From assembly GCA_964016885.1 (NCBI GenBank), contig OZ024741.1, positions 269,080,001-269,144,000 of the forward strand: 64,000 nucleotides of DNA. The letters are read 5' to 3'. The stretch comes from Eledone cirrhosa. Taxonomy: Eukaryota. The notes under the pieces were generated by a model. That model did not search any database and was not told the DNA's origin. It saw only the letters and a list, made by a program, of their open reading frames with translations. The translations under genes were made by a program, and so were the position numbers. Positions 3,757-34,500 of this stretch are shown one piece after another; the stretch's first letter is position 1; the number at the start of each line of letters is the position of its first letter.

Positions 3757-5735
3757 ATGGAAATTTTCGACCTTGAAACGGTCAACAACGTTCAGGTCAA
3801 AAGTTTAAGGGCAGGCACTGCAGATTTCACCACGACTACGACGGCTACAGTCATGCCTGTCATCCACTCTACTGAATGTGAAGGCAAAACTCAAAAGCTA
3901 CCATCACAACCTTCTGTGATAGCAGCAGTATCATCTGAAAACGACATCACCACCACCGCCACAACCACCACCACCACCACTACCACAACAACAACAACAA
4001 CTCAGAGCAATAACGACAATAACACCGACAGCTTCAATGTAAACAAGGATGGCGGTGGCAACAGCAAGAATGACAACAACAACAATAAGAGCATCAAAAA
4101 CACCACATTTGCTGCAGCAGCAGCAAAAACAAAGCGCTTATTGAATATTGATATTGATATTAGCGATGAAGACGAACAGTTGGCCAAAGCGTGGAGGCTA
4201 ATTAAACGGGAGAAGTCCTGGGCAAACCTGACCATCCCGGACGAGGCAATAGCGGCCATGCAAAGGAGGACAGTGTTCTTTCGATGTATTTCGGTGCAGA
4301 CACGAAAAGTGGAACTTGCGAGCCAAGCAGAGGTCGAGGCTGCTTTGGAGTACATCGGAAGTAACATAGAGTACAAAGCAAGAAGCAAACAGTTCGGTAC
4401 CATCTCGGTACTGTACAAAACCGAGGCCTTCGCCATTAAGCACTCGGTGACCCCCTGCATAACGGAACGCATTATCATGCATCCCTCCTATATGGGTAAA
4501 AGGACAGTGAAGGTACGCATTCCCAGCATCCCACCAGGAATGAACATATGGTGGCTACTGGGATACGTAATCGAGGAGGGGACAGACACTACCCTTCTGG
4601 ACATCAAAAGGACAGAGAGAGAGTACTGGTCCGGAATGGATTTGGAGATTCTTCTCCAAATGAAACCGGAGGATATGAATAACATCCCGGATCTTGCCCG
4701 CCTGCAGGACGGGACAACAATCCAACTAATGATTGACGGAAGAAGGCCACGCTGCTTCGTCTGCGGGGAAGCAACGCATCTTCAAGCCTTCTGCTCTCAG
4801 CGCAAAAATGCAGGGGGTCGCAAACCTCCTTTGTTGCCAACGCCAGTGTCAGTACGGAAAGCTGCACCACAACCACCACCAAAAACAAAATCAACAAAAC
4901 ACGGACACCAACATCAAAAGCAGCCGGATCACCACCAACACCAAAACCAATCCAAGGAGAAAACGAGGAAAGCTCTCCCACTCCCCCCCCCCCAATTATA
5001 CACATAGAAAAAACAATAAACGCACACACAGACACAGAGGCACTCACAGACACAGACCCTTTGTCTTCCAGCAGCGAAGATGAAGGAAAATCCCAAAAGT
5101 GCAAAAAAACAGAGAAAACTCACAAAAAAAAGCCCTAACAAAACACAAAAACACACACAACAAAAAATACAGACACCACTAACGCAAACACTTCCCCAAT
5201 AACATCATCACCAACAGCAACATCGACACCACCTCCACAATCCCCGAAATGCAAACAACCTAAACAAACACAAGTACAAATAAACACACAAATACCTGAA
5301 ATTGCAGACACCACACCTACAACAAACATAGACATACCCGAAACAACACCACCAAAACCATCGCCACCACCTTCACCAAAACGAAAACAAATAAAACCAC
5401 ACCAACAAAATGTTAAAAACTTCGTGCTTGTCAGAAGGGCCAATGATAAACTGATGGCCCTCTTAGCGCGATGCGAGGACATTCAAACAGAGGGGGAGAT
5501 TTTTGAAATGAGCACATTTTGCGTGCCAGAAGATTTGCTTCTGGTCCGAATGTCACTCAATTCCTTCAAAGAAATTCGAGAGAGCTTTCCTCAAGACGTG
5601 GGAACCCCGAATGTGAAACCCACATCAAGTCTTTTAAAGGGGTTCCCAAAAGAAACCCCACCAACCATGAAGGTCGAACCACACGACCTTCACAAGACAC
5701 GGGAGGTAAGTAAACCTTCCCTCTCTCTCTCTTAG
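3757..5735 (+). pseudogene. Tx1 copy A ORF1 (gag-like, CCHC knuckle), frameshifted
   Basis: T/N-rich N-terminus, CFVCGEATHLQAFC zinc knuckle, P/T/K-rich C-terminal part. Frame breaks near homopolymers at ~4985-5130. Confidence 0.8.
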
Positions 5736-5744
5736 CTTACCAAT

Positions 5745-8700
5745 ATGGCCATATTAAGAGTAGGAAGTTTAAATGTTCGCGGCCTGGGGTCACCCTGGAA
5801 GCAGGGTCGCCTGCTCAACGACCTCCGGTCGTTGGAAATGGATGTGATTGCCGTAAGCGAGACCAGAATTTCCGACACGCGCGCACTAGCCCCCATTTTC
5901 GACGACTATCAGATCTTCGCATCTGTTAGCAGGCCGGGAATGGGGGCTGGGGTGGCAGTGCTGTTTAGGAAAGGACTGGATCTCGAGGTAAGGTCGATCT
6001 TCCAGGACCCGGACGGTAAGTTGGTGGTCTTGGATGTGAGCAGTAGTGATGGTGGTGCCTTTAGACTGCTGGCCGTCTACGCCCCTACAGGGGCCGGGCG
6101 ACCTGACTTCTTTAGGCGCCTGGAGACCTTTCTGGGTACGTCTCGCCCTTTACTGTTAGCGGGGGACTGGAATGGCATCTTAGACGCACGCTGGGATTGT
6201 GTGGGAGTAGCCGATAGGAGCGGGGGGTGCAAAAGCCTCAAGCACCTACTCAGCCAGTTCCAACTGTTTGACAGGTATCGACTAGATTTCCCCAATGTGC
6301 CAGTATGGACATGGACCAACCGAATGGGGTCATCTAGATCGTATATAGACAGGATCTTCATTAGGAAAATAGATAGAAATAGTGTGGGCTGTCCACTTTT
6401 TAAAACGGTCGCCTATTCAGATCACAAATTTGTGATCTGTACGGTCGACCTAAATAAAACGCGTAGGTTAGGACCGGGTTACTGGAAGCTGAACATGTCA
6501 TTTCCGGCACGTAAGGCTTACAGGGACCGAGTCAACAATTTAGTTAAGCAAAAGTTGACAGGGGGATCATCAACAACAGATGGTGGGGGGCTCTCAAAAG
6601 AGAGATTAGAGTAACTTCGATAGAGTTCAGCAAAGAACTAGCGTTAGAGAAATATAGAAAGGAGGGGGAGGTGGTAGATAAGTTAGACGAGGCTATTTGT
6701 AGTGGCATCGCAACTGACGTGCTAGCGGCGAGAAAGGCATTAGACCATTTCTTCAACGCCAAACACGAAGGTTGCATTGTCAGAGCTAAGGCGCGTGCGC
6801 TGAGAAACGAAGGAACTAAAGCAGTTCGATGGGCCCGCGTGGCGGAGGCGCAGCGTGGTAATAAAACCACAATTCGGTCTTTGGCGGACCGAGACGGACA
6901 CGAGATAAGCGATTCCAAGCGGATGTGTGAGGCCTTTCGCCAGCACTTTGCTCGGTTGTTCAGGGAGAGTGGCGAGTCAGAGAGAGTAGCGGATTTCAGT
7001 CCCTACCTTGACGGCTTGCCGCGCATCTCGACGATCGACGCTGAGCGCTGCGAAAGGCCGATTACTTCAGCCGAAATTCAGTACGCCCTTGTCGGCTGCA
7101 TGAGGCGCAAGTCACCCGGTTTGGATGGCCTGCCCTACGAGCTTTACGTAAATATGCCAGATTTGTTCTCCGAACTCCTCGAAGCACTCTACTGCAACTG
7201 GCAGCAGAATGGGAGTATTCCCAGTTCTGTGAGCAGGGGAGTGGTGACATTGATAAGGAAAGACGAGAACAAGAGGGATACATTAGACAACTTCAGGCCC
7301 ATAACTCTGCTCAACACAGAGTTTAAGATTTTGGCCAAGGTGTTAGCAAAGAGATTGGCGCTTGTCGTCGAGGATTTGGTTGGGGAGGCGCAAACTTGCG
7401 CAATCCCAGCCAGGTCCATACACGACAATCTCCACCTCATGCGATACATCATAGAGAGGGTAGGGTGTAAACCTGGCTTCGGTGGGGCACTGATCAATTT
7501 AGAGTTTGTAATCAAAGCAGCTGGCTTCGGCCCTGTCTTTAGAAGCTGTCTTTAGAAGCTGGATCGTTGCAATACACAGCGGCACAAGCTCGGTGGTCAA
7601 GGTTAATGGCCACCTCTCGGAACCATTTCGGCTCTCCCGATCGGTCCGTCAAGGGTGCCAACTCTCTTCCCTTCTGTACGTATTGACTCTCGAGCTTTTA
7701 CTGCGGAAGCTGGAGCTGTTGCAGGGCATCCCGCTCGAACCGGGGCGTGGAAAGGCGGTGTCGGCTTATGCGGACGACATCACCGTGATGGTGTCGAACA
7801 CCTCAGAAATCGAGGTGGTCGGCACCTTACTGAAGGAATATGAAAGGTTGACAGGAGCCAAACTTAACCCGGAAAAGTTGGTGGGCTTGCCGCTCGGAAC
7901 CTGGAGAGGCAAGCCCATGCCGTCCAACAGCGTCGCGGGGCGCTGGACGGACGGACCTGTAAAGTTGCTCGGGGTTTGGCTCGGACCAGACCTCCAGGTG
8001 GAAAAGAATTGGGACGAGGAAACGAGCAGAGTAGCCAGTCTCACCCAAAAATGGGCTGGGAGGAAGCTATCACTGAAAGGTCGCGCGGAGGTGGCGAATG
8101 CGTACATCGCGTCCGTCATCTACTACCGCCTAACCGTCGTGCCTTGCCCCCGTCCGCGCCTCGTCAAGTTGGAACGGCTCCTCTTCAAATTCTTGTGGAG
8201 GGGACAAGTTCCGTTGGTGAGGCGGTCCATCTGCTGCCAGCACCCTCTACGCGGAGAGCTGGGCATGCCGTGGCTAATGATGCGCAGACATGCGTTGAGG
8301 CTGCGACATCTCCAGATATTCTGACTCAATGGTGAACAGGTGTGGTCGCCGTTTATCAGACGGGCCTTTCCGCAGCTCATTTCTTTGACTGAGCTGCAGT
8401 CCTGGGTCAAGAAGAGACCGAGATTGGGTGACTGGCACCTGGAATGTTGCCAGGCACTCACTGCCCTCTACCAAGCGGGCAATGCGATCAGTGGAACTTC
8501 CACTCTCGAGTTCTATAGAGGATTAGTGGTGGGCAAGTGCAATGACGCACTCGGAGAAGCTTTGGGCCTCGACGAAGTCGAACTGACCAGTCTGTACCGG
8601 AGGACTTTTGAGCCGGGGCCGATGGACAATTTCCAGAAATCCCTCGCTTGGCAGTGCTACCGGGGGGCACTGCCGGTTCGGGATAAACTCTACAGGCACG

Positions 8701-9137
8701 GAAGTGCTGTCAGACGGACCTGCCCAAGATGCGCACAGAACGACGAAACCGTTCTGCACGCACTTGTCCAATGTCCCTGCATTACTGACTTGTGGAGTTA
8801 TGTCGAACAGCTACTGTCGCGTGTGGAACGAATCCGGCTATCGGCCGAGTCCATAGTGAAGATCGATCCACCGCCTTCCTTAGGTCAGGAAGAGCAGGAC
8901 ATTTTCCTCTGTCTGGTGGCAGTTGCGAAAGAGATTATATGGTGGACCAGATTGAAAGGACTAAAGACAGACACTTTTCTCTTCTGCCAATCCCTCATCA
9001 ACTTCTTCAAGTTTCACCTGGAAAGGAAGGTGAGGGTGGAGAGAAAAGTGCTGCCCCCCGGTACATTTTCTAAAAGGTGGGTGAATGTGGAGAGAATGGC
9101 TCGTGTGAATGGGCCTACTCTGACCATGCGCCTATAG
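5745..9137 (+). pseudogene. Tx1 copy A ORF2 (APE endonuclease + RT + Cys-rich C-terminus), frameshifted
   Basis: SLNVRGL, VSET, VYAP, AGDWN, SYIDRIF, SDH (APE); KSPGLDG, FRPITLLN, SVRQGC, AYADD (RT); CPRC...ETVLHALVQC. Confidence 0.93.
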
Positions 9138-9437
9138 GCTGGCTAACTTGAGGAGAGGGGTGCTCTCCCTGGGTGCCCTAGAAGCGCAGGGTGGTTCAGG
9201 ATTGGTGGGGTACCCGAATCACCCCAGGGTCGTCCACCCCTTATCGGGGAATTTATTTTGTTATATTTATGCATAGTTTATTTTATATTTTTATATTTTC
9301 ATTGTTAAATTAGTCTTGCCATTGTGCACTTTTACTCGACCTTATTGTAAACCCCCACTGTCCCTGTCTTTGTATTGTCCCCTACATGTCGGCCTTTGTG
9401 GCTAATAAATGAAATCATTATTATTATTATTGTTGTT

Positions 9438-12400
9438 GGTGAAGCCACGCTTCTTCTCGCCTCCAGTCTTTTTCAACGTTTTACCTCATTTTCAACCGTT
9501 CTAAACATTTTATTCAAGTTTTAAATTTGATAAAAGTTTAGAAGTGACCCACCTAATACAGGGGTTCACTAGTAAATAATACGGCATCCCTTTACGGGGT
9601 GTCGTATTCGTATTTGTGTAAAAATATTTTTTTGAAAAATTTCAACATGGATAACACAAGAAAGAGAGAGAGCGCTGTCAGACAACACAGAGAGAGGGAG
9701 ACTTTATCAGCATGTCAACAAGACAGCGTTCCAGCGGAGGTAAATATAAACGAAAATATTACAAAGGAAAAAAAGATTGTTACAGATTTAAAATTACCAA
9801 ATATTTCTAACACAAACAACACCAACAACATCACCAACAACAACACCAAAAATAACAGCGGTAAAGTCGAGAACGACAATAACAATGACAATAACAACAG
9901 CCACAACAACAATAATAGTAGGAACAGTATCAACAAAAACAACAATAATAACAACAGCCACAATAACAGTAACAGCAGCAACAGTATCAACGAAAACAAC
10001 ACCAACAACTGTTCCAGCGAAAAGAACAACAATGACACCGATACCTGTAATAGCGACCTCAGCACCACCAGTAAGACCAGTAGCGGCAGCAATAGTGGTG
10101 CTGCTGAAAAAGGGACCACTTCTTTTGCAGGTGTCGCCCGAAATATCGAGACAGTGTTAGTCACAGAGGAGGAGATGGCAGTCGCAAGGGCCATGGTGAC
10201 AAGAAGCGCAAATAGAGTTTCCCTGAAACCTCCACCCGATTTTTTCAAGGACCAGCAGCTACGGACGGTGACTTACCGCACCGTAAGCAAAATCTCACAT
10301 CGAGTGGAGAGAGCCACGGAGGCTCAAATCCAAAAGGCCTTGGGGTGCGTCTGGGCACGCAAAACCCACATCACCCGAGGCAGAAAGTACGCCACAGAAG
10401 ACGTACTTTTCGCCACCCCCCAGGAAGCAAAGTCTCACTCTTTGGAAACCCTAAAGAGTGAGGAGTTAGTCTTGGTGCCCTCCTACTGCGGGCAGAAAAT
10501 TGTGAGGGTCAAAGTGACGCAGGTCCCACCCGACGTGCCCATACCTTGGCTGGCCGCGTCTGTCCTTGCTGGAATTGAGAACAGGGCGACCATGCTGCAA
10601 GTAGAACAAATAGGGAGAGAGAACTGGTCAGGTGTAGGCATGCAAATGCTTATACAAACTGACCAGGAATGTATCGAGGCTATCCCCGATATCATAGACA
10701 CGAGGAAGGACTCCAACTCCCTATAAGTGTAGAAGGAAGACGGTCAAAATGTTATCTCTGTGGGTCGAAAGGTCACCTCAGGGCCTTTTGCCCGCAGAAG
10801 ACACCGAAGAGGGCCCCTCTCCTTCCAATACCTGGTCTGCTGCTACCAAGAGCAGGACAGGCAACACACGAAGAAGCCCCTTCCACGGTCAGTAGGAGGG
10901 CAACGTCCGTAGCACCCGTACCAAGGCCACGGATAACTAAAGCAGCATCATCAGTAGCGGCAACACCAATAGCTACATTTGAAATAGCTACACCAGCAAC
11001 AAAATTGCCGAAGAGGGCTCCACTACCACCACCAACAGCCGTGGAGCACATACCCCCCCCCCCCCCCCAGACGCCACAGAATCCGACATGGAGTTTGAGG
11101 CGGGAGTGACGTGGCAAACAGTCTGCCACAAAAAACAAAAAACAAAAAAACCCTTAGATTCACCCTCCAAAAGCGAAGACATACAAAGAGGGGTAAAGGC
11201 AGCAAGGAAACTTGCAGCAACACCACCACAAACACCAACAACGCAAACACAACAAGACACACACACCAAACAGCAACAAGAAGAAAACGGTAACAAAATC
11301 ACCCCTCCCCCAAAAAAGTACACAGCCATAAACATAGCAAAAATAGAACTCATAAAATATATAAAGCAGCACACAGATATCACGAAAAAAAACTACTACA
11401 CCCCACCAACACCAAAAACTCTCCCGACAAGCATAAGCATCATCGAAATCTCAATAGAACAGTACAAACCTTTAAAACAAAAATTCCCCAACGCAGTTGG
11501 AGACTTCAGAGGGACGGTTACCAAGAGGATATACACTGACATCTTCTTGGAAACACCCATGGCCAGCCAAAGGGACGGTTCTACTGTCCCTTCACCACAC
11601 GAACAAGGTAAGTGACCCTTTCTCACTTGCCCCGTTTCTCATCCAACATGGCTGTACTCAGAATAGGCAGTATAAATGCACGTGGCCTGGGGTCATCTTG
11701 GAAGCAGGGCCACCTGCTCAATGACCTTAGGTCACTAAACATAGATGTGGTGGCCATCAGTGAAACCAGAATCTCCCAGGCACGGGCCTTCGCACCGATC
11801 TTCGGCGGCTACGATGTATACGCATCTCCCAGCCGTCCAGGATCGGGGGGAGGGTTTGCCGTCCTTTTTCGGAGAGGCTTGGATCTCGCGATACGGGCCA
11901 TCTTCCTGGACCCAGAAGGTAAGTCGGTGGTGCTGGACGTGACCGGCAGCGAAGGCAATGCTTTCAGGCTAGTAGCCGTCTACGCCCCGACAGGGGCAGG
12001 ACGGCCAGATTTCTTCAGACGTCTAGAGACCTTTCTTGGAACGTCCCGCTCTTTAGTGTTAGTGGGCGACTGGAACGGTATCTTGGATGCACGCTGGGAT
12101 CGTGTGGGGCTAGTGGATAGGGGAGGAGGGTGCAAGAGCCTCACCAACCTGCTCAGACGTTTTGAACTGTCTGACAGGTATCGACTGGATCACCCGAATG
12201 TACCAATGTCGACATGGACAAACCGCATCGGGTCATCCAGATCGTATCTAGATAGGGTATTCTGCAGGGAACTAGATAAGGCTAGTATAAGTTGTCCACA
12301 ATTTAAAATAGTCGACTACACAGACCACAAATTTGTGATCTGTGAGATCGACATAGACAGACTTCATAGACAAGGGCCTGGTTACTGGAAGCTGAACGCG

Positions 12401-15331
12401 TCTTTCCCGGCGCGCAAGGCCTACAGAGACCAGATTAGCGTATTAGTTAAGCGGTCGTCAACAACAGGTGGTGGTTCGCCATGAAAAGGCCAATTAAAGT
12501 AGAGTCGATTAGGTTTAGCAAAGGAGTAGTGATAGAGGAAAATAGAGTAGAGGGAGAGCTAGTCAGAAAGCTAGAAGAGGCGTTTAGGACAGGCATCGCA
12601 ACCGACGTGCTTGCGGCGAGATTGGCACTCGACCAATTCTTCAACGCAAAACACGAAGGCTGCGTTGTCAGAGCTAGAGCGCGTGCTCTGAAACACGAGG
12701 GGACAAAAGCCGTCCAATGGGCCCGGGTGGCAGAGGCGCGACGTGGAAACAAAGCCACAATTCGGTCTTTGCCTGACCAAAACGGGTGCGTGATGCTCGA
12801 ACCCGAGCGGATGTGTGAAGCTTTTCAGCAGCACTTTGCTGAACTGTTCGGGAGCGGCGGCGGCCCGGATCGGGGCATGGACTTCAGTGCATACCTCGAC
12901 GGACTGCCTCGGCTATCGACGACCGCAGCACAGTGTTGCGAAAAGCCAATAACAGCCGGTGAAATACGGGAAGCGATGGCTAACTGCACAAGAGGTAAAT
13001 CGCCAGGTTTAGATGGTCTGCCCTACGAGCTTTATGCATTTATGCCAGACTTGTTCGGTGACCTCTTGGCAGATGTCTACTGCAACTGGCAGCAGAACGG
13101 GAGCATTCCCAGTTTTGTGAGCCGGGGAGCAGTGGCGCTGCTGCCCGAACAAGGGGGATGTTATTGATAATTTCAGGCCCATAACCCTGCTAAACGCAGA
13201 GTTCAAGATTTTGGCCAAGGTGTTAGCAACGTGTTGGCGCTTGTCGTCAAGGGTCTGGTGGGAGAGGCGCAGACATACGCTATTCCGGACAGATCCATAC
13301 ACGACAACCTCCACCTCATGCGATACATCATAGAGAGGGTGGTTAAGGAACCTGGCAAGGGTGGGGCCCTGATCAACTTGGATCAATCCAAAGCATTCGA
13401 TAGGGAAGACCATCGGTACCTGGCGGCGGTCCTCGAGGCAGCCGGTTTCGGGCCCGTTTTCAGGCGTTGGATCGCAGCAATGTACAGCGACATCTGCTCA
13501 GTTGTGAGGGTGAACGGTCACCTGTCGCAGGGTTGTCCCCTCTCGTCCCACTTGTACGTATTGGCTCTCGAGCCGTTACTGCACAAACTGGGGGGCGATG
13601 AGGGGCGTCCCACGCGAATTAGGATGCGGGAAATCCGAGTCGGCTTACGCTGACGACGTCACCGTGGTGGTGTCGAGCACCAGACACGTCCAGATGCTCG
13701 GCACCGCTCGGCACCCGCTCTCAAGGAATACGAAGCGGTGACAGGAGCAAAGATAAACCAGGAAAAGTCGGTGGGCTTGCAGCTAGGCACCTGGAGAGGC
13801 AAGTCCATGCCGTCCGACAGCGTCGTGGGGCGTTGGACGGACGGACCGGTTAAATTGCTCGGGGTCTGGTTCGGACCGGACCCCAAGATGGAGAAAAACT
13901 GGAACGAGGTGACGATCAGGGTGGGCTCCCTCACCCAGAAATGGGCTGAGAGGAAGCTGTCCCTGAAGGCCGGGCGGAAGTGGCGAATGCGTACATCGCA
14001 TCCGTCATCTGCTACCGCCTCACCGTCGTCCCTTGCTCCAGCCCAACTCTCACCAAAATGGAGCGCCTCCTCTTCCGCTTTTTGTGGAAGGGACGCGCTC
14101 CCATGGTCAGACGATCCATCTGCTGTCAACACCCGTTGCGTGGAGGACTGGGCATGCCATGGCTGATGATGCGCAAACATGCGCTGAGGCTGCGACATCT
14201 CTGGTGCTTCCTTGATGGTGAACGGGTGTGGTCGCCGTTCGCCAGGAACATTTTCCCACAGCTCGTCTCCTTGACGGAGCTGCAGTCCTGGGTCAGGAAA
14301 AGACCGAGGGATAGCGCTTGGAAACTGGAATGTCTCCAGGCGCTCACTGCCCTCTCCCAGTTGGGCACCAGTATCGGTGGAACATCCACCTCGGCGTTCT
14401 ATAGAGGACTAGTGGAGGGGAAGAGCGACGACATTCTCGGAGAGATCCTGGGCGTCGAAGAAGATCAGCTGTTTGTTCTCTTCCGGAGAACTTTCAGCCC
14501 GGGGCCTATGGATAACTTCCAAAAATCCCTGGCCTGGCAGTGCTACCGGGGAGCGCTGCCGGTTCGAGATAAGCTCTACAGGCACGGAAGTGCCGTCAGC
14601 TGAGCCTGTCCGAGATGCGCGCATAGCGACGAAACCGTTGTGCACGCACTCGTTCAGTGCCCGAGCATTGCTGACTTGTGGAGCTATGTCGAACAGTTGC
14701 TGTCACGTGTGGGACTGATCCGGTTGTCGACTGAGTCCATTGTGCAGATGGTCTCGCCGTCTTCCTTCGAGGAGGAAGGGCAGGCGGTTTTCATCTGCCT
14801 GGTGGCCATGGCGAAAGAGATTGTGTGGTGGACAAGGTTAAAAGGATTAAAGACAAACACTTTCCTCTTCGGCGAATCCCTAATTAACTTTTTCAAGTTT
14901 CACTTAAAGAGGAAAATCAGGGTGGAGAGGCAAGTGCTGCTTTCTAGAAAGTTTGTTGAAAGGTGGGTGAATGTAGCGAGAATGGTCCGAGTGAATATAC
15001 GTCTGAATATACGTCTGAATATATGTCTGAATATACGTCTGTAGTTTGAGAGATGGAAAAATTGAGAGGGGGCGCTTGCCCTGGTAGTCAGGGTGGCCGT
15101 GGTCTTTTGTGTGGTGTTCGCTACGAGTAACCCTCGGAGGTTTCCCCCCTATTGGGGAATTTTTCATTGTCTCAATTTTCATTTTATTGTTTATATATAT
15201 GTTTTATGTTTTTTTTTTCTTTTCTTATATAAATAATAAAAATATTTACACGCACAAAACCCACATCGTCCCGTCCTGTCCCGTCTGTGATGTTTTTCTT
15301 GATGTCAGCCCTTGTGGCCAATAAAGAAATC
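9438..15331 (+). mobile_element. Full-length Tx1-like LINE, copy B, disrupted
   Basis: Begins with GG after (ATT)n/GTT. ORF1 ~9647-11615 has CYLCGSKGHLRAFC. ORF2 11648-15044 has APE/RT motifs. Ends GGCCAATAAAGAAATC(ATT)3. Confidence 0.92.
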
Positions 15332-15340
15332 ATTATTATT

Positions 15341-18500: not shown

Positions 18501-18960
18501 TGCATAATAGAGATGATTTAAATCAGTAATGTTTAGTTTGTTTGTGATGATAATGTTTTTGAGAATTATGTTAGTCTTGTGTATTATCTTTTGGTTCTGT
18601 TTGGAGTTCTGGATCTTAGGGAGGGTGTCTCGTTGCCCCATGTCAGATTCTTTCATTTTCATCCATTCGATCATAATTTCATCCTTCAAGTTGGCAAGTT
18701 CATTCTCATTCATTTCTTTATCATTTACGATCTCATTATTTTCATTTGGAGTTTCATCCTGAGCATGCACTCCCTCCTCTTTTTCGATCCTTTCTTTAAT
18801 TTGTTCTGTTGCCAGTGATTCCGCCCCAACCCTGGGGTTCGAAGTGTTACAGTTTACCTCGTTTTCACTGACACATGTTTCATTTTCCCTTCGCTGACTT
18901 TGTGCTAATAGCTTGATCTGATCAATTTATTATCAAGCTAATAGCTTGATCTGATCAATT
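15543..18960 (-). mobile_element. R4/Dong-like RLE non-LTR retrotransposon, family 1, 5'-truncated, disrupted
   Basis: KSPGKD, NYRPITCL, EQKGC, GIFLGDSLSPLLF, FYMDDLKL, YKYLG, CRVC...HI, NRPDI...IDMSVP; frame ends GTAHILRKILSI* at ~15687. (ATT)n lies on both sides. Confidence 0.9.
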
Positions 18961-19462: not shown

Positions 19463-19465
<3 letters not shown>

Positions 19466-22400
19466 ATTGAATGCTATGGTTGACTGAGGCTCGGCTCTGT
19501 AAGGTATTGTAAATTTTGACCGCTATAACAATTGTAAATTATTTAAAACTTTAACCAAATTGTAGACAAAAACACCCTCCTCCCCGTGAGAGGGGTCTTT
19601 CTGCCTGTTATTTGGCCCTTCGTGGTTAAATAACTGCTTATTGGGGTTTTGTGCCCAATATTTATTTCAAACAAAAAAAAACATGGCTACGAAAAAGAAT
19701 TTTCACAAGTCACTCCCACTCATTCCGTCTTCTTCTTCCTCAATCGTCACTTCAGCAGAGAGAAGATTGTCTCTCTCCCTCCCTTCTCTAAATGTGTCTC
19801 TCTCCCTCCCTTCTCTTTCGCAAGCGACGCCAGTAAAGAAAAATCACGTGCAAAGCATGGAACATTTCTCCACGACGACGACAATGATGAAAAAGGTGTG
19901 CGTTAAATACGAAAACCCATTTCATTCGTTTGACGTCATGAATAATAGCAGTAGCAGCCGTAATAACAGCAGCAGCAGCAGTGAATAGGAAAACAACAGT
20001 AGCAGCCGAAACAGCATCAGCAGCAGCATAAACAACAACAGCATTAGCAGCAACAGCAACAACAACAGCAGCAGCAGCAACAACAACAACCACAGCAACA
20101 GCGGCAGCGGCAGTAGTCGTAGTACCAGCAGCAACAACAAAAGTAACAGCAGCTCTGACGACAACAACAACAACAACAACAGCAGCAAAGAAAAACCAAT
20201 CTCGTTTGCAGGTATCGCAAAGAACCTGGAAACCATCCTCATAACAAATGAGGAATTACAGGAAGCGAAGAAGATGGTGACGAAAACCGGACACCGAGCA
20301 ATCTGCAAGGCAGCCGAAAAACTTTTCGAAACCCAACAGCACTGTACGGTCACGTACCGTACAGTAAGCACAAAATCCCGTAGGGTTGAAAGAGCCACAG
20401 AGGCTCAAATACAAAAAGCCTTAGGGTCTGTGTGGCAGCGGAAAACGCATATCACCCGAGGCAAGAAATATGCCACCGTAGACGTGCTTTTTGCCACACC
20501 CCAGGAGGCAAAGGCTCAATCCTTAGTGACCCTAAGGAGCGAGGAAATGGTGTTGGTGCCCTCCTACTGCGGGCAAAAAATTGTGAGGGTTAAACTTACC
20601 CACGTCCCTCGCGTCTGTCCTCGTCGGAATCGAGGACAAATCAACTGTACTGCAAGTACAGAAAAGAGTAAGAGAAGATTGGGTCGGCACCTCCATTGAG
20701 ATGTTAATCCAAACCAACCAGGAGTGCATCGAAGCTATCCCGGATGTGATAAACTTCGATAACGGCACTCAACTGCCCATAAGTGTTGAGGGCAAACGCC
20801 CGAAATGCTTTCGCTGTGGATCGAAGACTCACCTCAGGGCCTTCTGCAACGAGAAGACCCTGAGAAAGGAAAAAAAAAACCCTCCTTCCGAAACCGGCTC
20901 CACTGCTACCAGCAACAGGACAAGCGGCAACCAGGAACGATAGGTCCGTGGTACCATACCCACGCCACGGAAATCAAGAACAGCAGCAGCAGTGGAAATA
21001 TTAACAACAACAACACTAATACCAACTGCAGCTCCAACAGAGACTCCACTGCAAACATCACCAACAACAACAAGTGAAAGAGTGGAGCTGGTACCCCTAC
21101 CCGAACTCATAGAATCAGACATGGAGTGTGAGGTGGGAGAGGGATGGCAAAAGGTCGCAAGAAGGCACAAACGCAGAAGCAGCGCATCGTCGCCTTCGAA
21201 AAGGGAGGAAAAAAATGAAAAAGGGGTAAAGGCTACTGCAAAGAGACTCACAGCAGCAACACCACCAACACAATCACCACCCACACTAGCACCACCATCA
21301 CCACCGGCGACAACCCCACCGCCAACAACAACAACACCTTCAACACCAACACCACAAGCACCAACATCGCAAACACAACAACAAAACACACACACACACA
21401 GCAACAACGACAAGAAAATAGCAGAACCATACCCCACCCCCAGAAAAACAAATGCACAGCAATAAATACACACAACAAGAAACTAATGACTTACATAATT
21501 GAACACACAGACATTTCACAGCACGACTACATAATACCAGCACCAATCAAAACACCAACGAACATAAGACTGGTAAGAATTACACAGTAACAATACACAA
21601 ACAATAAAACGAAATTCCCCAACGCAGTTGGTGATTTCAGAGACCTAGGAGGGACTCTCAACAGGAGAGTATATTCGGACATACTCATAGAAGAGCCGAC
21701 GACCAGCCGAAGGGACGATTCAACGGTCTTTTCAACAGACGATCAAGTGAAAAGGGATGGAGAAACCATCCTTCCTCTACGAAAAGTACGGTAAGTGGTC
21801 TTTCCCATCTTTTCCACTCCATTTTAAACATGACCTCACTCAGAATGCGCGTGGCTTGGGGTCGTCATGGAAGAAGGGCCACCTGCTCAACGACCTCAGG
21901 TCACTAAACATAGATGTGGTGGCCATCAGCGAGACCAGAATCTCCGAAGCACGGGCCTTCGCACCGATCTTCGGCGGCTAGGATGTGTACGCATCTCCCA
22001 GCCGTCCTGGATCGGTGGGAGGAGTTGCTGTGCTTTTTCGGAGAGGTTTGGATCTCGCCATACGGGCCATCTTCCTGGACCCAGAGGGTAAGTTGGTGGT
22101 GCTGGACGTGACAAGCGGAGACGGGCAAGCTTTCAGGCTAGTGACCGTCTATGCCCCGACAGGACCAGGGCGGCCTGATTTCTTCCGGCGTCTGGAGACC
22201 TTTCTTGGAACGTCCCGCTCTTTAGTGTTAGAGGGCGACTGAAACGGGATCTTAGATGCACGCTGGGACTGTATGGGATTAGCGGATAGGGGTGGAGTGT
22301 GGAAGAGCCTCACCAACCTGCTCAAGCGTTTTCAACTGTCTGACAGGTACCGATTGGATTTCCCGAATGTGCCAATGTGGACTTGGACAAATCGCATAGG

Positions 22401-25400
22401 GTCATCCAGATCATATCTAGATAGAGTATTTTGAAGGGAAATAGATAGGTCTAGCATCGGTTGTCCACAATTCAAGATAGTCAGCTACACGGACCACATA
22501 TTCGTGATCTGTGTGCTTGACTTAGATAGGCTTCATAGACGAGGACCCGGCTACTGGAAGTTAAACGCGTCCTTACCAGCGCGCAAGGCCTACAGAGACC
22601 GGATTAGCGAACTAGTTAAGCGGGCGTTGACGAGGGCCATCGCCAACAACCAGTGGTGGTTTGCTCTGAAAAGAGCGATTAGAATAGGGTCCATTAGGTT
22701 TAGTAAGGCTTTAGCAATAGAGAAAAATAGGGCAGAGAGAGAACTAGTTAGAAAATTAGACGAGGCGCTTAGTAAAGGCACCGCGACCGACGTACTTGCG
22801 GCGAAATTGGTCCTTGACCAATTCTTCAATGCAAAGCACGAAGGCTGCGTTGTCAGAGCTAGGGTGCTTGCTCTCAGACACGAGGGGACGAAAGCCGTTC
22901 AATGGGCGCGAGTGGCGGAGACGCGTCTTTGGTGGACCACGACGAGCGCATGCTACTCGATCCCGGGCAAATGAGTGAATCTTTTCAGCGACACTTCGCT
23001 CAGCTGTTCGGCGGCAGCGGTGGGCCGGGTCGAGGGATGGACTTTAGTGTCTACCTCGACGGACTGCCGCGGCTTTCGGCCACAGAGCGGAGTGTTGCGA
23101 AAAGCCGATAACAGCCGCTGAAGTACGGGAGGCAATGACTGGCTGCATAAGGGGTAAATTGCCTGGTTTGGATGGTCTGCCCTATGAACTTTACGTACAG
23201 ATGCTAGACTTGTTCGGAGGCCTCTTGGCGGACGTCTACTGCAACTGGCAACAGAACGGGAGAATTCCCAGCTCCGTGAGCCGAGGAGCGGTGGTACTGC
23301 TGAGAAAGGATCCGAACAAGGGGGATAACATAGATAATTTCAGGCCCATAACTCTGCTTAACACGGAGTTCAAGATTTTGGCCAAGGTGCTAGCAAAGAG
23401 GTTGGCGCTTGTCGTTGGTGGTCTGGTGGGAGAGGCGCAGACATGCGCCATTCCCGACAGATCCATCCACGACAACCTCCACCTCATGCGATACATCGTA
23501 GAGAGGGTAGCTAAGGAACCTGGCACGGGTGGGTCTTTGATCAATTTAGATCAGTTGAAAGCTTTCGATAGGGTTGACCATCGTTACCTAACTGCAGTCC
23601 TGAGGGCGGATGGCTTTGGGCCCGTCTTCAGAGGCTGGAACGCTGCCATGCACAGTGACATCTGCTCTGTGGTGAAAGTGAACGGTCACCTTTCGGAACC
23701 GTTCAACATCATGCGCTCGGTCTGACAAGGATGTCCCCTCTCGTCCCTCTTGTACGTATTGACTCTCGAGCCATTACTGCACAAACTGGAGACGTTGAGG
23801 GGCGTCCCGCGCGAACTAGGATGCGGAAGATCCGTATCAGCATATGCGGACGATGTCACCATAGTGGTGTCGAACGCCAAACACATTCGAGGCGATCGGC
23901 ACTACACTAAGAGAATACGAAGCGGTGACAGGAGCAATAATCAACCAGGAAAAGTCAGTGGGCCTGCAGCTCGGCACCTGGAGAAGCACGTCCATGCCGT
24001 CCAACAACGTCGTCGGACGCTGGACGGACGGACCGGTTAAATTGCTAGGGGTCTGGTTCGGTCCGGACCGCCAGACGGACAAAAACTGGGACGAGGTGAC
24101 GAGCAGGGTGGCTTCTCTCACCCAGAAATGGGCGGAGAGGAAGCTATTCCTGAAATGTCGAGCGGAGGTGGCGAATGCGTACATCTGCTACCGCCTGACC
24201 GTCATACCTTGTCCTAAGCCCCGCCTGACTGCTGTGGAGCGTTTGCTCTTTCGCTTTTTGTGGAAGGGACGCGCTCCGATGGTCAGGCGGTCCATCTGTT
24301 GTCAACACCCGCTACGTGGAGGGCTGGGCATGCCGTGGCTGATGATGCGCAGACATGCGCTCAGGCTACGACATCTCCACCTCTTCCTCGACGGTGATCT
24401 GGTGTGGTCACTGTTTGCTAGACACGTATTTCTCCAGCTCGTTTCCTTGACCGAACTGCAGTCCTGGGTCAAGCGAAGACCGAGAGGGAGCGCCAGGAGA
24501 CTGGAATGTCTTCAGGCGCTCACAGCCCTCGACCAATCGGGCAATGTGATCGGTGGAAACTCCAACTCGGCGTTCTATAGAGGATTAGTGTAGGGGAAGA
24601 GCGACGACGTACTTGGGGAAACTCTAGGCGTCGACGAAAATCAACTAGCCAATCTCTTCGGAAGAACTTTCGGGCCGGGGCCTATGGACAACTTCCAGAA
24701 ATCTCTGGCCTGGCAGTGCTACCGAGGAGCCTTGCCAGTTCGAGATAAACTCTACAGGCATGGAGGTGCCGTCAGCCGGGCATGTCCGAGATGCGCGCAG
24801 GGCGACGAAACCGTCCTGCACGCACTCGTCCAGTGTCCGAGCTTTGCTGACTTGTGGGTTTATGTCGAACACCTGCTGTCGCGTGTAGGACGGATCCGGC
24901 TATCATCTGAGTCCATCGTGAGGATTGCCCCGCCCTCTTCCTTTAGCCGGGAAGCGCAGGCAGTTTTTATCTGTCTGGTGGCCATGGCGAAAGAGATAGT
25001 ATGGTGGACACGTTTGAAAGGGCTGAAGACGAGCACTTACCTCTTTGGTGATGCCCTGATTGACTTTTTCAAATTTCATTTGAAAAGGAAAATCAGAGTA
25101 GAGAGGGAAGTGCTCTCGTCCCAGCATTTTGTTGAAAGATGTGTGAGAGAAGCAAGAATGGCCCGAGTGAATGGGCCTACTCTGAGTATATATCTGTTAA
25201 TTAAAGGTGGAAAACTGGGAGAGGGCACTTGCCTTGGTGGTCAGGGTCACTGTGGCCTTTTACTGGGCTTTCTCCACAAATGTCTCTCCGAAGTCTCCCC
25301 CCTATTTGGGAATTTTTCATTGTTATTTTTTTTGTTACATCCTCTGTTTTTGTTTTGTTACACGCAGAAATGTCCATTTGTACCGTCCTGTATTGTCCTG

Positions 25401-25452
25401 CACTGTCCTTAATGTCTACTTTATGTAAACCCTTGTGGTTAATAAAGAAATC
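19463..25452 (+). mobile_element. Full-length Tx1-like LINE, copy C, disrupted
   Basis: ORF1 ~19683-21794 has CFRCGSKTHLRAFC. ORF2 runs from ATG 21830 to ~25200 with APE/RT motifs and stops. Ends GGTTAATAAAGAAATC-ATTATT. Confidence 0.92.
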
Positions 25453-25458
25453 ATTATT

Positions 25459-28400: not shown

Positions 28401-29075
28401 ATCAACCAAATCTTGTCCTAGCCCGTCAGCATTCATCTCCTCAGTGGCCGTATCTCTGTTCCAGGTATTATTTATCTCAGCATTCAGATCATTGTCTGCT
28501 TCGGGTGGTTCCTCGGTTTTCTCGACCTCCTCACCTTCATTTCCCACTGGCTCGTTTGCCTGGTATACTCCACTCTCCATCTCCAAGCTAATCTCTCTGC
28601 TCAGTTCCTCCAGTTCCAGCTCGCTTATCCACCCATTAGTTCTTATTACCCGAGCCTGCCCGGCCAATTTTTGTTCATCTAATTTAAATAGACCAATCTC
28701 GTTCCAGATGTTATGCATCCGTTTCCTATAGCCTTTCTCCTTGGGGTTACTCTTCAGGTAACATTGCATAACAGTTCTATTCAATTCTTTCGTCCAGTTG
28801 GTTCTGGTCCCTTTCCTTCTTCTTCTTCCTCAGACACCAGCAGTATTTGGTTGACAGCCAGGTCCCTGCTGCTGAGCCAGGGAGCACCTGTTGGGTGAGA
28901 GTCTGTCACATGACATTCTAGTCTCCATTTCACCGTTATTCGAACTGTTTAGGTTCGACATTTAAACACTCTTATCGAGGATTGGCGAATGTATGGTTAC
29001 ATAACCACCGGTGATTTCATCACCTCCGGTAATTTCGTCACTCCCGGTGATTTTTGTGTGGCATTATCACGCTGT
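25459..29075 (-). mobile_element. R4/Dong-like RLE non-LTR retrotransposon, family 2, near full-length, frameshifted
   Basis: N-terminus VMQCYLKSNPKEKGYRKRMHNIW; EPWWKKRL; GIFQGDSLSPLLF, LFMDDLKL, CRIC, NRPDLVV...DVACP. ORF ~28961 to 25533. Confidence 0.9.
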
Positions 29076-30362
29076 AGACGAACATAAATAAACAAACAAA
29101 CAAACAGGCAAAAAAAAACCAAAAAATGAATAAGCATAAGTTTCATTGTAATGTAATGTTTGAATGTCTGACTTAGTTTTTCCCTTCCCTTCTCTGTCCG
29201 TCTGTTTGTTTTTCTCTTCATTTTTCTTTTCTTTACGTTTTTCGTTGTTGCTGTGCTGCTATGATTTTGATTTTTGGCTTTTTGATTTTGACCGGGTCAT
29301 CAATTCAGTCTATTTATATATTTTGATGCCTTCCTCTTTTAGTGGGGGCACTACGATGTAGCAGGGGCTAGTGGGAGAGAATAGCGGTGGCAGCGATAAT
29401 GAGGCAGTGGCGGTGGTGGTGGTGGTGGTGGTGGTGGCGGTGCTGTGCTAGTAGTACCTAGCAGGAGGCAGTGGGAGAGAATAGCGGCGGCAGCGATAAT
29501 GAGGCAGTGGCGGTGGTGATGTGATCGTAGTACTGTAGCGATGGTGTTGAAGTTGGAGTAGAAATAGCGGCCGAGGCAACTTGACCAGAGTTTTTAGCGT
29601 GGTAGTGGCGGCGGTGTTGGTGGTGAAATTATCTTTAGCTATTTAGTCATTTTGCCATTTTTCTCCTTTTCGACTCTAACATTCCTGATCCAAAATTAAA
29701 TATTAATATTGTTTATTAACATTGTCTAGTGATACCGCCACCTTCCCCTTTCGTAAGTTAACAGAAGGTAATGGGGAAATAGCGGTGGCAGCAATGAAGG
29801 AGTGGCGGCGGCGGCGATGGGATAGTGGTAGCAGTGATGGATGGGTGGTGGCGGCGGTGACTGTAGTGATGGCGTTGTCGTTACTGAGTTTTGTTGAATA
29901 GACTGTAGTTTTGTTTGATCGGTGAATCTATGCGGTTAGTCGCGTATATGTGTTGACATATTCCTTAATATTGGAATTAAACATTTTGTGAAAACTTGAG
30001 ACAATAGTAATAGTAATTATAATTATTATGCTGGGATTGACGGTGGTGGTGGTGAAATTGCCGTTATCTGGCTGTTGTATTTAGTGTACACAGAGGAGTG
30101 ATGGGGTAGGTGGTGTATCTAGTTTGTGGTGTTGGTGAAATTGCTGTCATTTGGCTGTTCTATATAGTGTAGACAGAGGGGGTTTTCTTCCATTTATAAC
30201 CATATTCTTTTTTTGAATGTAAAATGTATATTACAAAATTGAATATTTGAGCGATATAACAATATATTATGGATCCGAATTTTCCTGAGACTTGAGTCTG
30301 GTGCTTATGCATCATTTGTACTAAGAATTGTTATTTCACAATAAATCATTATTATTATTATT

Positions 30363-31344
30363 GGCACCTGGAATGTTGCCATGCACTCACTACCCTCTAC
30401 CAAGCGGGCAATGCGATCAGTGGAACTTCCACTCTCGAGTTCTATAGAGGATTAGTGGTGGGCAAGTGCGATGACGCACTCGGAGAAGCTTTGGGCCTCG
30501 ACGAAGTCGAACTGACCAGTCTGTACCGGAGGACTTTTGAGCCGGGGACGAGGACAATTTTCAGAAATCCCTCGCTTGGCAGTGCTACCGGGGGGCACTC
30601 CCGGTTCGGGATAAACTCTACAGGCACGGAAGTGCTGTCAGACGGACCTGCCCAAGATGCGCACAGAACGACGAAACCGTTCTGCACGCACTTGTCCAAT
30701 GTCCCTGCATTACTGACTTGTGGAGTTATGTCGAACAGCTACTGTCGCGTGTGGAACGAATCCGGCTATCGGCCGAGTCCATAGTGAAGATCGATCCACC
30801 GCCTTCCTTAGGTCAGGAAGAGCAGGAAACTTTCCTCTGTCTGGTGGCAGTTGCGAAAGAGATTATATGGTGGACCAGGTTGAAAGGACTAAAGACAGAC
30901 ACTTTTCTCTTCGGCCAATCCCTCATCAACTTCTTCAAGTTTCACCTGGAAAGGAAGGTGAGGGTGGAGAGAAAAGTGCTGCCCCCCAGTACATTTGCTA
31001 AAAGGTGGGTGAATGTGGCGAGAATGGCTCGTGTGAATGGGCCTACTCTGACCATGCGCCTATAGGCTAGCTAACTTGAGGAGAGGGGTGCTCTCCCTGG
31101 GTGCCCTAGAAGCGCAGGGTGGTTCAGGATTGGTGGGGTACCTGAAGCACCCCAGGGTCGTACACCCCCTATCGGGGAATTTATTTTGTTATATTTATGC
31201 ATAGTTTATTTTATATTTTTATATTTTCATTGTTAAATTAGTCTTGCCATTGTGCACTTTTACTCCACCTTATTGTAAACCCCACTGTCCCTGTCTTTGT
31301 ATTGTCCCCCTACATGTCGGCACTGGTGGCTAATAAATGAAATC
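30363..31344 (+). mobile_element. 5'-truncated Tx1-like LINE, family A (copy A2)
   Basis: Near-identical to 8434-9416. Preceded by (ATT)5 and followed by a long (ATC/ATT)n run. Confidence 0.93.
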
Positions 31345-31348
31345 ATCA

Positions 31349-31413
<65 letters not shown>

Positions 31414-31415: not shown

Positions 31416-31546
31416 CCCACTTATTCCTGAGAGGGTCGGGGGAACAGAATCCTCGAACACTCATTCCATTGGGTCCTGTCAGGAGTAACCCTCTCTAATT
31501 GATCCGGCTGGATCCCCAAGCGAGACCAGTCAACCTCATGGATGTT
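31414..31546 (-). mobile_element. 3' tip of RTE-clade LINE
   Basis: Homologous to 45780-45917 and 58337-58480 (WSRLGIQPDQLE...RPSQE*, TAAGTGGGTGA). Confidence 0.8.
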
Positions 31547-34500
31547 AATCCCCTTGTTCGGATCCTTTCTCAGCAGCTCCACAGCTCCTCGGCTCACAAA
31601 GCTGGGAATTCTCCCGTTCTGTTGCCAGTTGCAGTAGACGTCCGCCAAGAGGGATCCGAACAAGTCTGACATTTGTACGTAAAGTTCGTCGGGCAGACCA
31701 TCCAAACCAGGTGATTTACCCCTTGTGCAGCCAGTCATTGCCTCCCGTACAAAGCGTTTGTTATCGGCTTTTCGCAACACTCCGCCTCAGTGCCCCCGAA
31801 CAGCTGAGTGAAGTGTCGCTGAAAAGCTTCTCACATTTGCCCGGCATCGAGTAGCATGCGCCCGTCGTGGTCCACCAAAGACCGGATCGTGGCTTTGTTG
31901 CCACGACGCGCCTCCGCCACTCGGGCCCATTGAACGGCTTTCGTCCCCTCGTGTCTGAGAGCAAGCACCCTAGCTCTGACAACGCAGCCTTCGTGCTTTG
32001 CATTGAAGAATTGGTCAAGGACCAATTTCGCCGCAAGTACGTCTGTCGCGGTGCCTTTACTAAGCGCCTCGTCTAATTTTCTAACTAGTTCTCTCTCTGC
32101 CCTATTTTTCTCTATTGCTAAAGCCTTACTAAACCTAATGGACCCTATTCTAATCGCTCTTTTCAGAGCAAACCACCATTTGTTGTTGGCGATGGCCCTC
32201 GTCAACGCCCGCTTAACTAGTTCGCTAATCCGGTCTCTATAGGCCTTGCGCGCTGTTAATGACGCGTTTAGCTTCCAGTAGCCGTCTCCCTGTCTATGAA
32301 GCCTATCTAAGTCAAAGTCACAGATCACGAATTTGTGGTCCGTGTAATCGACTATTTTGAAATGTGGACAGCCTATGCTAGACCTATCTATTTCCCTACA
32401 AAATACCCTATCTAGATATGATCTGGATGACCCGATACGGTTTGTCCATGTCCACATTGGCACATTCGGGAAATCCAGACGGTACCTGTCAGACAGTTGA
32501 AACCGTCTGAGCAGGTTTTCGAGGCTTTTACACCCTCCTCTCCTATCCGCTAATCCCAGACAGTCCCAGCGTGCATCTAAGATCCCGTTCCAGTCGCCCA
32601 CTAACACTAAAGAGCGGGATGTTCCAAGAAAGGTCTCCAGACGCCGGAAGAAATCAGGCCGCCCTGCTCCTGTCGGGGCATAGACGGTCACTAGCCTGAA
32701 AGCTTGCCCGTCTCCGCTGGTCACGTCCAGCTACACCAACTTACCTTCTGGGTCCAGGAAGATGGCCCGTATGGCGAGATCCGAACCTCTCCGAAAAAGC
32801 ACAGCAACTCCCCCCCACCCCCTCCGATCCAGGACGGCTGGGAGATGCGTACACATCGTAGCCGCCGAAGATCGGTGCGAAGGCTCGTGTTTCGGAGATT
32901 CTGGTCTCGCTGATGGCCACCACATCTATGTTTAGTGACCTGAGGTCGTTGAGCAGGTGGCCCTGCTTCCATGACGCGCATTTATGCTGCCTATTCTGAG
33001 TGAGGTCATGTTGAAACGGAGTGGAAAAAGAAAGGAAAGACCACTTACCTCACTTCTCGTAGAGGAAGGATAGTTTGTCCATCCTTTTCACTGCTTGTGG
33101 CCTCCTCCGGAAGGATGTCCTTATAAATCCTCCTGGAGAGTGTTTGTCGGAAGTCTCCGATAACCTTGGAGAATTTTTGTTTTAGTGTTGTGTACGTTTT
33201 CTGTGTGATGCGAGTGATTTGTATGTGTGGAGGTGGTGTGAACTTTTGGGTTGTTGTGTAGTCTTTTTCTGTGATGCTGGTGTTGTGTTGGATGTAGTGT
33301 AATAATTGGTTGTTGTTCAAATTTAATGCTGTGTAGTGTGTATCGTTTTTGTTGTTTTGTTTTGTTTGCGTTTGTTGTGGGTTTGTTTCTGTTACGCTTT
33401 TTGGTGATTTTTGTGGTGTTGGTGATGGTGGTTGTGGTGTTAATGATGGTGATGGTGTTGGTGTTTGTGGTGATGGGGCTGGTGATGCTGGTGTGGGTGG
33501 TTCCATAGCTGTCTTGAATTGTTTGTTTGTTTGCTTATTTGTTTCTCCCTGCATTTTGGTTTTGGAGGGTGGAGGAAGAGGATATTTTCTTTTTGGGGTT
33601 CTTTTTTTCTATTTCTTTTTTCCTGATATCATTTCCCACTCCTCCTCATCGTCATAATCTGTCTCCATTTGGGATAGGTCGGGGAGTGGAAAATCCTCCA
33701 TGGCGTTGGTTTGGGTTGTGGCGTGGTGGATGGTGGAGGCGCTGGTGCTAATTCTGGCGCGGTGGGTGGTGGGGGTGTTGTTGCTGCTACAGTTGTTGCT
33801 GCCATTTCTGCTGCTGGTAGTTTTGAAGGTTGAGTCACTGGAGTGGGTAGGGGAGGTGGCCTCAACTTTTTAGCCTGAGGGCTGAAAGCCTTTAGGTGGG
33901 TTCCTTCTCCACAAATGACACACCTAGGCCTTCTACCCTAACGATTACGGTGAGGTGGCTGCCGTCATTGAGGTCTATCACCTCTGGAATTTCCTCAATG
34001 TTCTTTTGGTCCGCTTGGATCAGGAGCTCCATCCCAGATCCGGACCAGTTCTCCTGCTTTACTTTTGTTACCTCAATTATTTTCGTGTTGGCCTCGATGC
34101 CGGCGAGGAAGGCAGCCATTAGCCAGGGAATTTCGATGGCCGGCGGAACCTGGGTCACCCTGATCTTCACGAGTCTCTGACCCTGTACCCATCTTTTTTT
34201 ACTATTCTCTTGGCTTCATTTAATTCATCCTGGCTTACCTCGATTGTTTCGCTTTTCTTGGCTGCTTTGGCAAACGACACATTTTGTTTTGCGCTGGTGT
34301 TGATGTTGTTGTTGTTATTCTCATTGTTGTTGTTGTTACTGTTGTTGTTATTGTTATTTTTGTTATTGTTATTTTTAGTTTCAGTTGTGGTGGAGGTCGT
34401 GGTGGTGATGTCAGTGGTGTTCGGCGTGGAAGAGTCGATTCTAGGTGAATCCATTTCGATGTCACGAGATAACATTTTTTTCTGTTGTCGCTGTGGTGGT

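Follow-up and report, generated by a model that had tools for sequence, protein, structure and literature searches.

Introduction

According to the available portions of the papers cited here, all of pol is spliced out of the Drosophila element copia to give a gag-only RNA (Yoshioka et al. 1990, as cited in PMC5580714), and in the plant Ty1/Copia element EVD, which produces an shGAG RNA, U1 both splices and blocks early termination (PMC5580714). Splicing of human L1 from donors in the 5' untranslated region (UTR) yields SpIREs, which are integrated dead ends, and the L1 ORF2 protein (ORF2p) exhibits cis preference (PMC5860796). We analyzed a 64,000-nucleotide (nt) stretch of contig OZ024741.1 from the 3.0-Gb genome of Eledone cirrhosa, which contains four copies (A–D) of a retrotransposon without long terminal repeats (non-LTR) that has two open reading frames (ORFs). 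We take these elements to be members of the Tx1 clade. "The window" denotes this whole stretch, and the coordinates of motifs, controls and elements follow its numbering. In this study, we describe a conserved 5' splice-site motif at the end of ORF1 and argue that ORF2 is probably an alternatively retained intron, whose removal would leave an ORF1-only mRNA as in copia.

The Tx1 clade (Tx1, Keno, Kibi, Koshi) belongs to the L1 group of animals and is characterized by an ORF2 with APE endonuclease and reverse transcriptase (RT), an ORF1 with CCHC knuckles and an association with microsatellites (PMC4494074, PMC5203782; see also PMC5753468). In two-ORF long interspersed nuclear elements (LINEs), the excess of the ORF1 protein (ORF1p) over ORF2p is usually ascribed to translation of a single bicistronic RNA, by reinitiation or from an internal ribosome entry site (PMC5381506). 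The available part of that survey of vertebrate L1 inter-ORF regions discusses both, and the word stem "splic" is absent from it, as it is from the available part of an octopus repeat annotation reporting active L1-Tx1 families (PMC13282606). A literature search covering titles and the beginnings of abstracts (subscription journals, Repbase Reports and supplements were outside its scope) returned no conserved ORF1-end donor or ORF2 intron for Tx1, L1 or other non-LTR elements, in agreement with the preliminary description of this DNA, whose author knew of no such feature in Tx1.

A conserved 5' splice-site motif at the end of ORF1

Elements A (3529..9430, plus strand), B (9440..15335, plus strand, head-to-tail behind A) and C (19464..25456, plus strand) are full-length, decayed copies of about 5.9 kb each, in which a CCHC-knuckle ORF1 (ATGs at 3757, 9647 and 19683, respectively) is followed by an ORF2 encoding APE endonuclease, RT and a zf-RVT domain (5745..9137 in A, broken by frameshifts; 11648-15044 in B; 21830-25199 in C). 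Element A is 96% identical over 5.9 kb to another copy, L031, whose ORF2 is intact. Element D (31542..34903, minus strand; ORF1 ATG 34690) has an internal deletion in ORF1 and is 3'-truncated, ending prematurely near 31540. GTAAGT preceded by G was found at 5706 in A (GAG/GTAAGT, 5703..5711, the slash marking the predicted splice position; ORF1 phase 0, stop TAG at 5733-5735), at 11608 in B (AAG/GTAAGT, 11605..11615; phase 1, stop TGA at 11613-11615), at 21791 in C (ACG/GTAAGT, 21788..21796; phase 2, stop TAA inside the motif) and at 33048 on the minus strand in D (GAG/GTAAGT, 33043..33051; phase 2, stop TAA inside the motif). The background rate of GGTAAGT in the window is 1.1e-4 per base. 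These positions, the preceding G, the pyrimidine-rich spacers and the three phases are as given in the preliminary description. The distance from the donor to the ORF2 ATG, which that description regarded as fixed, is 39, 40, 39 and 39 nt in A–D (ATGs 5745, 11648, 21830 and 33009); across lineages it ranges from 24 to 47 nt, and it is 13 nt in an outgroup described below, so it is not fixed.

To score the motif over many copies, elements were fetched with a pattern for the start of the endonuclease, which was chosen irrespective of the donor and matched the genome 21,643 times (an unrelated repeat among the matches), and with protein searches. Loci retrieved because their junctions deviated were excluded, as was the outgroup, leaving 164 distinct junctions weighted to families A, B, C/D and J. 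GT[AG][AG]GT occurs within 45 nt upstream of ORF2 in 153 of these, compared with 2 of 656 control windows; 136 of the positive junctions have G/GTAAGT, 13 have G/GTAGGT and 4 have other forms. The 11 donor-less junctions belong to point-mutated, deleted or truncated copies and to one lineage with CAG/GTAATT 52 nt upstream. When 18 lineage representatives from three clades (66-96% nucleotide identity) were compared, the donor (GTAAGT, GTAGGT or GTGAGT) was present in 18/18, 24-47 nt before ORF2 and in all three ORF1 phases. The consensus of U2-type 5' splice sites is AG/GTRAGT; the motif matches it and is retained independently of coding. On the sequence evidence, the ORF1-end GTAAGT-type feature is genuine and selected, and its interpretation as a selected U1-type donor, proposed in the preliminary description, is well supported: the motif is kept through three phases, varies only as the donor consensus permits and recurs in the outgroup.

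Neutral inheritance from a single ancestor has in its favor that all lineages are related and that synonymous sites are far from saturated. However, neither the ORF1 ends nor the spacers can be aligned between clades, the phase has changed while the motif was retained, and the motif is common to the outgroup at 47-50% nucleotide identity. We therefore consider neutral descent very improbable and already largely refuted.

The preliminary description also held that protein constraint does not explain the motif. Its retention in three phases bears this out; on the other hand, in most lineages the motif and the ORF1 stop overlap, so that the motif is partly coding-constrained there. In phase-2 lineages the stop lies inside it (xx/G TAR GT), and most phase-1 lineages encode GK followed by TAA or TGA. 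In A and G, the ORF1 stop lies 12-15 codons past the donor, and coding thus accounts for only part of the motif. The proximity of stop and motif would also suit a signal that acts in translation, promoting termination and then reinitiation at ORF2, is composed of a stop context and a hairpin, and resembles a donor only by accident. The spacers of B, B3 and F1 can pair with the motif, and the available text of PMC5381506 models the translation of ORF2 in human L1 as reinitiation. Yet the motif is kept where the stop precedes it, as in the outgroup, or follows it at the distance seen in A and G; its distance to the ATG varies from 13 to 47 nt; and the hairpin reaches z < -2 in only 2/19 sequences, with differing pairing partners. 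We rejected a hairpin over the donor as a general feature and regard a translation signal as a decidedly improbable explanation.

Two further candidates near the donor were set aside. A 30-nt micro-intron in A (GTAAGT..TTAG) was rejected; its AG is absent from most lineages. A second GGTAAGT, located in the endonuclease region (6014..6021, plus strand, in A; others at 11919, 22088 and, on the minus strand, 32744), encodes G-K and is probably not part of the system; the E-H lineages, J and A2 lack it.

Donor and acceptor motifs in an outgroup from another animal

An alignment search returned 43 loci (L182-L224) in bacterial genome bins kept as species representatives. Most are tandem arrays of a relative with 44% protein identity (47-50% nucleotide identity) to the elements studied here, and such retrotransposon arrays in bacterial bins are probably host-animal DNA. 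ORF1 of this outgroup ends TAA G/GTAAGT, 13 nt before the ORF2 ATG, and the order of stop and then donor is seen in 32/33 distinct ends. A second donor, GTRAGT, lies just past the ORF2 stop in 37/37 ORF2 ends, and about 250 nt beyond it the 3' UTR has an acceptor consisting of a pyrimidine tract and an invariant TAG (10 sequences). In the same 10 sequences, the letters of the tract vary while its pyrimidine content stays at 75-95%; only 41% of the intron is invariant, as are 2 of its 10 AGs. The outgroup donor and acceptor sites are all non-coding.

Predicted acceptors at or after the end of ORF2

ORF2 terminates with TAG in 15/18 lineage representatives, mostly as CTGTAG, and in most lineages here the acceptor is likely this stop itself, as the preliminary description had suggested. 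Its candidates are likely acceptors in A (CTATAG/GCT, 9114..9137, plus strand) and B (CTGTAG/TTTGA, 15021..15049, plus strand, with an in-phase TGA immediately after). In element A, the predicted intron would extend over 5706-9137 (plus strand), leaving the 3' UTR (9138..9409, plus strand; AATAAA at 9404-9409, then (ATT)n) as the predicted last exon. The suggestion does not hold for element C, in which the stop is TAA in the clade and has decayed to TTA in the window copy.

When the donor is joined to the ORF2-stop AG, a stop follows within 3 codons in the phase of ORF1 in 13/16 lineages, compared with 5/32 off-phase frames (12/16 and 6/32 with two doubtful phases altered). C and D were set aside in this test because they have lost the ORF2-stop AG. 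Among 27 clade-level rotations, the true phases score highest, and the stop codon differs between clades. Judged from sequence, the predicted intron is 3.3-3.6 kb long, and its removal would leave the ORF1 end unchanged or altered by at most 3 residues in 12-13/16 lineages.

The C/D clade has TAA as its ORF2 stop and, instead of the TAG, a U-rich tract with CAG 158-176 nt into the 3' UTR, a likely replacement acceptor that in element C occupies 25341..25367 (plus strand), 168 nt into the 3' UTR. Among 55 3' ends of the B/C/D clades, the U-rich tract and CAG are found in 31/32 ends with a TAA or TTA stop, and a CAG at the same site in none of the TAG-stop ends (n = 19; 15 read, 4 unread); 4/55 ends were unclassified. 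The B clade and a 3' fragment in the window whose 3' UTR is near the C/D lineage (46534..47245, plus strand; CTGTAG/ATT at 46978-46986, the TAG ending at 46983) keep the TAG and have no downstream CAG. The frame from the C/D donor into the CAG exon is open for 20 codons in 6/6 copies. A pyrimidine tract and a YAG conserved beyond what coding requires are seen in the outgroup and at the C/D site; for the ORF2-stop AG the support is only indirect, through the phase test. An ORF1-only splice, as put forward in the preliminary description, is indirectly supported as a prediction by the phase-tracking of the first downstream stop and by the acceptor turnover in C/D.

That description also offered a role in blocking premature polyadenylation. 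U1 might bind the donor with little splicing, thereby suppressing premature polyadenylation or holding or stabilizing full-length RNA. A donor is able to silence an upstream poly(A) site, as the major donor of HIV-1 does; AATAAA/ATTAAA hexamers occur at 1.74 per kb in ORF1, which lies upstream of the donor, donor-like sites are present near the element 5' end as well, and no spliced genomic copies were found in the searches described below. The same role of U1 is reported in plant Copia in the available text of PMC5580714. However, downstream of the donor, in ORF2, the hexamers occur at only 0.21 per kb, and 14/18 lineages have none in the first kb of ORF2; because these hexamers are few, a polyadenylation block is a weaker account of the ORF1-end donor. 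It also leaves the non-coding acceptor of the outgroup, the phase-tracking and the C/D turnover unexplained. We keep it as a rival, weakened and, on balance, unlikely.

Points against the predicted splice and the search for spliced products

The observations in this and the next paragraph weigh against removal of ORF2 by splicing. The retention of TAG at the ORF2 stop is not significant on its own, because 14/45 conserved K/E/Q columns keep G at the third position equally; TAG conservation was dropped as an uninformative test of the acceptor. The tract before the ORF2-stop AG is only 52-81% pyrimidine and is coding. Since the lineages are related, the phase test at clade level amounts to only about 1 in 27, and F1, F3 and F5 have no early stop after the join but 27-96 extra codons. 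The acceptor turnover in C/D is a single evolutionary event, although loss and gain are paired in it. Among the bin loci, L218, a sister lineage of the outgroup, has the second donor and an acceptor without the ORF1-end donor, and L221, a 31%-identical element, has only A/GTAAAT. Exact-pattern searches for genomic copies missing exactly the donor-to-acceptor segment, a check proposed in the preliminary description, found none for A, C/D, E, F, G and J/A2 (B was not searched); unspliced junctions number 1,076 in the J/A2/A group alone (the test pattern matches about 80 of the first 100 in the list). In the outgroup, no donor-joined copy was found among 28 exon-2 starts. Cis preference can account for the absence of spliced copies, and an absence of splicing predicts the same.

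Several lineages have a GT after the ORF2 stop (TAG/GTRA or GCTG/GTGA). This GT could be a decayed second donor that itself yields TGA or TAA, and such a relic could make the phase test look too favorable in the A and E-H clades, not in B. Together with the second donor after ORF2 in the outgroup and the arrangement of copies in head-to-tail arrays, it would fit an ORF1-end donor that is spliced mainly to another acceptor, in the next tandem copy or in a host exon. On the other hand, our elements have no conserved downstream acceptor in their 3' UTRs outside C/D, and no GT follows the ORF2 stop in B or C/D, although the in-phase stop is present in B. In addition, the 3' UTRs (mostly 210-310 nt) are like the last exon of the outgroup (178-251 nt) in length, with weak sequence similarity (z mostly 1-4). 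We consider splicing mainly to another acceptor improbable, slightly less so than a translation signal.

Matches returned by the searches for spliced copies were inspected individually. The single matches for A, E and J lay outside elements and were due to chance, and that for lineage F was a small insertion. Those for C/D comprised an inversion, a single microhomology deletion ending CG, small indels and fortuitous matches. The first C/D pattern was blind to a join at the 3'-UTR CAG; a repeat pattern able to detect it gave 12 matches, of which 0 were joined. In the window, 35031-35720 (minus strand) is a short, internally deleted element in which a 5' end and the start of ORF1 are joined to a B3-type 3' end; the joint is not GT-AG, and it is a single case among the fetched sequences.

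Contigs of sequencing runs (4 runs of one study, with RNA or DNA not on record) were aligned to element A and the start of B. No joint starting at the donor was seen among the 15 listed of 1,020 contig joints or among the listed loose ends, which is no evidence either way. ORF1 and the 3' UTR are relatively deeper covered in run X4, but contig depth does not allow parts to be ranked, and this cover was given no weight. One contig, from run X4 only, skips 189 nt of A-type 3' UTR (window 9142-9332; ends CT..TT, depth 348); the skip is not a canonical splice and is unexplained.

Classification and other features of the elements and the window

ORF2 matches PF03372, PF00078 and PF13966 in Pfam, and its best match in PDB is human L1 ORF2p (E 7e-57), well above R2. 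The knuckle CX2CX4HX4C is present in ORF1 of 6/6 loci examined; Pfam zf-CCHC is matched by ORF1 of the outgroup only, with no match for ORF1 of element C. A–D copies adjoin (ATT)n, and several F-I copies adjoin (TCTA)n-like repeats, often at both ends, an arrangement that does not distinguish tail from target. The Tx1 label, which is that of the preliminary description, fits these elements, whose placement is based on their ORF2 and ORF1 domains. A homologue search with ORF1 found none, a metagenome scan returned one false locus only, and viral contigs gave none.

Donor-like GTRAGT or GTAGGT sites, U-rich afterwards, lie 30-70 nt from the element 5' end in 8/12 lineages with an intact 5' end, as read by eye (L122, L162, L111, L128, L118, L129, L174, L124), and also in the outgroup (29/38 segments; e.g., L183, L188) and at window 35668 (minus strand). 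G, F1, F5 and I additionally have a YAG shortly upstream of the ORF1 start. These 5'-end sites suggest a layout with multiple donors.

In the ORF1 C-termini of A, J, E, F, G, H and I, a motif M-[ED]-[IV]-x-[QREP]-P lies just upstream of the donor, within tails that are otherwise unalignable and of low complexity. In lineage G, ORF2 has no ATG in 5/5 copies (L097, L117, L124, L129, L170) and starts ATA GAT overlapping the ORF1 TAG, which suggests a non-AUG start or recoding of ORF2. Family A occurs in two versions, one with a phase-0 ORF1 and one that an additional C puts in phase 1; the start of the 3' UTR gives an early stop in both phases. Family J (L162, L163) is very young, with an open frame of 1150 codons for ORF2 in most of the 150 copies listed, many of them head-to-tail with a 5.84-kb period (C1:423.39-423.42 Mb, C4:157.08-157.10 Mb). 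Its spacer ends CCTGCCAG/CATG, an acceptor-like site directly before the ORF2 ATG.

The window further contains junction-less 3' fragments of these elements (2851-3528, 30362-31377 and the fragment at 46534-47245), an integrase fragment (565-2493, plus strand), RT-bearing LINEs of another kind (15864-18926 and 25533-28829, minus strand), an HTH_32 transposase-like ORF (37981-38781, plus strand) and a C2H2 zinc-finger ORF (59394-60437, plus strand). Rfam has no match anywhere in the window.

Discussion

We propose that ORF2 (about 3.45 kb) is flanked by a 5' splice site where ORF1 ends and by a 3' splice site that coincides with or closely follows its own end, and that it probably behaves as an alternatively retained intron whose removal yields an ORF1-only mRNA. 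As a prediction, this splice is well supported and has exact junctions. The spliced RNA would consist of the 5' UTR, ORF1, the 3' UTR and poly(A), and would encode only ORF1p, with a nearly unchanged C-terminus, supplying the excess of this protein that the particle needs. The unspliced RNA would give rise to ORF2p and serve as the template for copying. The spliced RNA may be left uncopied because ORF2p binds its own message or requires sequence inside the intron. A splice junction more than about 50 nt past a stop triggers nonsense-mediated decay, which would explain the position of the donor at the ORF1 stop; every donor is within about 40 nt of a stop.

A broader generalization is nearly evenly balanced, and we offer it tentatively. 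A branch of L1/Tx1-type LINEs in more than one animal may be an alternatively spliced unit with donors near the 5' end and behind ORF1, plus one behind ORF2 in the outgroup, all sharing a 3' acceptor. ORF2 as a whole would be an intron, the ratio of ORF1p to ORF2p would be set by splicing, and the spliced RNAs would go uncopied, dividing messenger from genomic RNA in a retrovirus-like manner.

If ORF2 is indeed removed in this way, the elements would have a second, RNA-level route to an excess of ORF1p over ORF2p, reached independently of copia. Cis preference would also be illuminated, as an RNA with a full 3' end would have left no copies among at least hundreds, and read counts over ORF1 or the 3' end would overestimate retrotransposition-competent RNA in such genomes. 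Since the predicted junctions are exact, they are directly testable.

The elements have the APE and RT of ORF2, the CCHC ORF1 and perhaps the microsatellite association in common with the Tx1 clade, for which splicing goes unmentioned in the available text of PMC4494074 and PMC5203782. With human L1 they share the ORF2 superfamily, and L1 too is a LINE with functional splice sites inside it (PMC5860796, in part). Unlike those producing SpIREs, the sites here frame ORF2 and are deeply conserved, and genomic copies missing exactly the intron were not found in the families searched, which did not include B. EVD resembles them in having a conserved U1-type donor after the structural gene, and differs in being an LTR element with a short intron tied to premature termination (PMC5580714, in part). 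The closest likeness is to copia, in which the enzyme region is entirely contained in an intron of about 3 kb and the structural-protein RNA keeps its normal 3' end, as described in the available text of the same paper; the predicted intron here also takes in all of the enzyme region and would not disrupt the structural ORF. In copia, an LTR element, splicing is proven and there is a single long ORF, whereas the present elements are two-ORF non-LTR elements with a donor at the ORF1 stop and a putative acceptor that is either the ORF2 stop or a site in the 3' UTR. With their non-LTR organization and APE-type ORF2 they fall outside the Ty1/Copia LTR elements, and they likely work like copia without being members of it.

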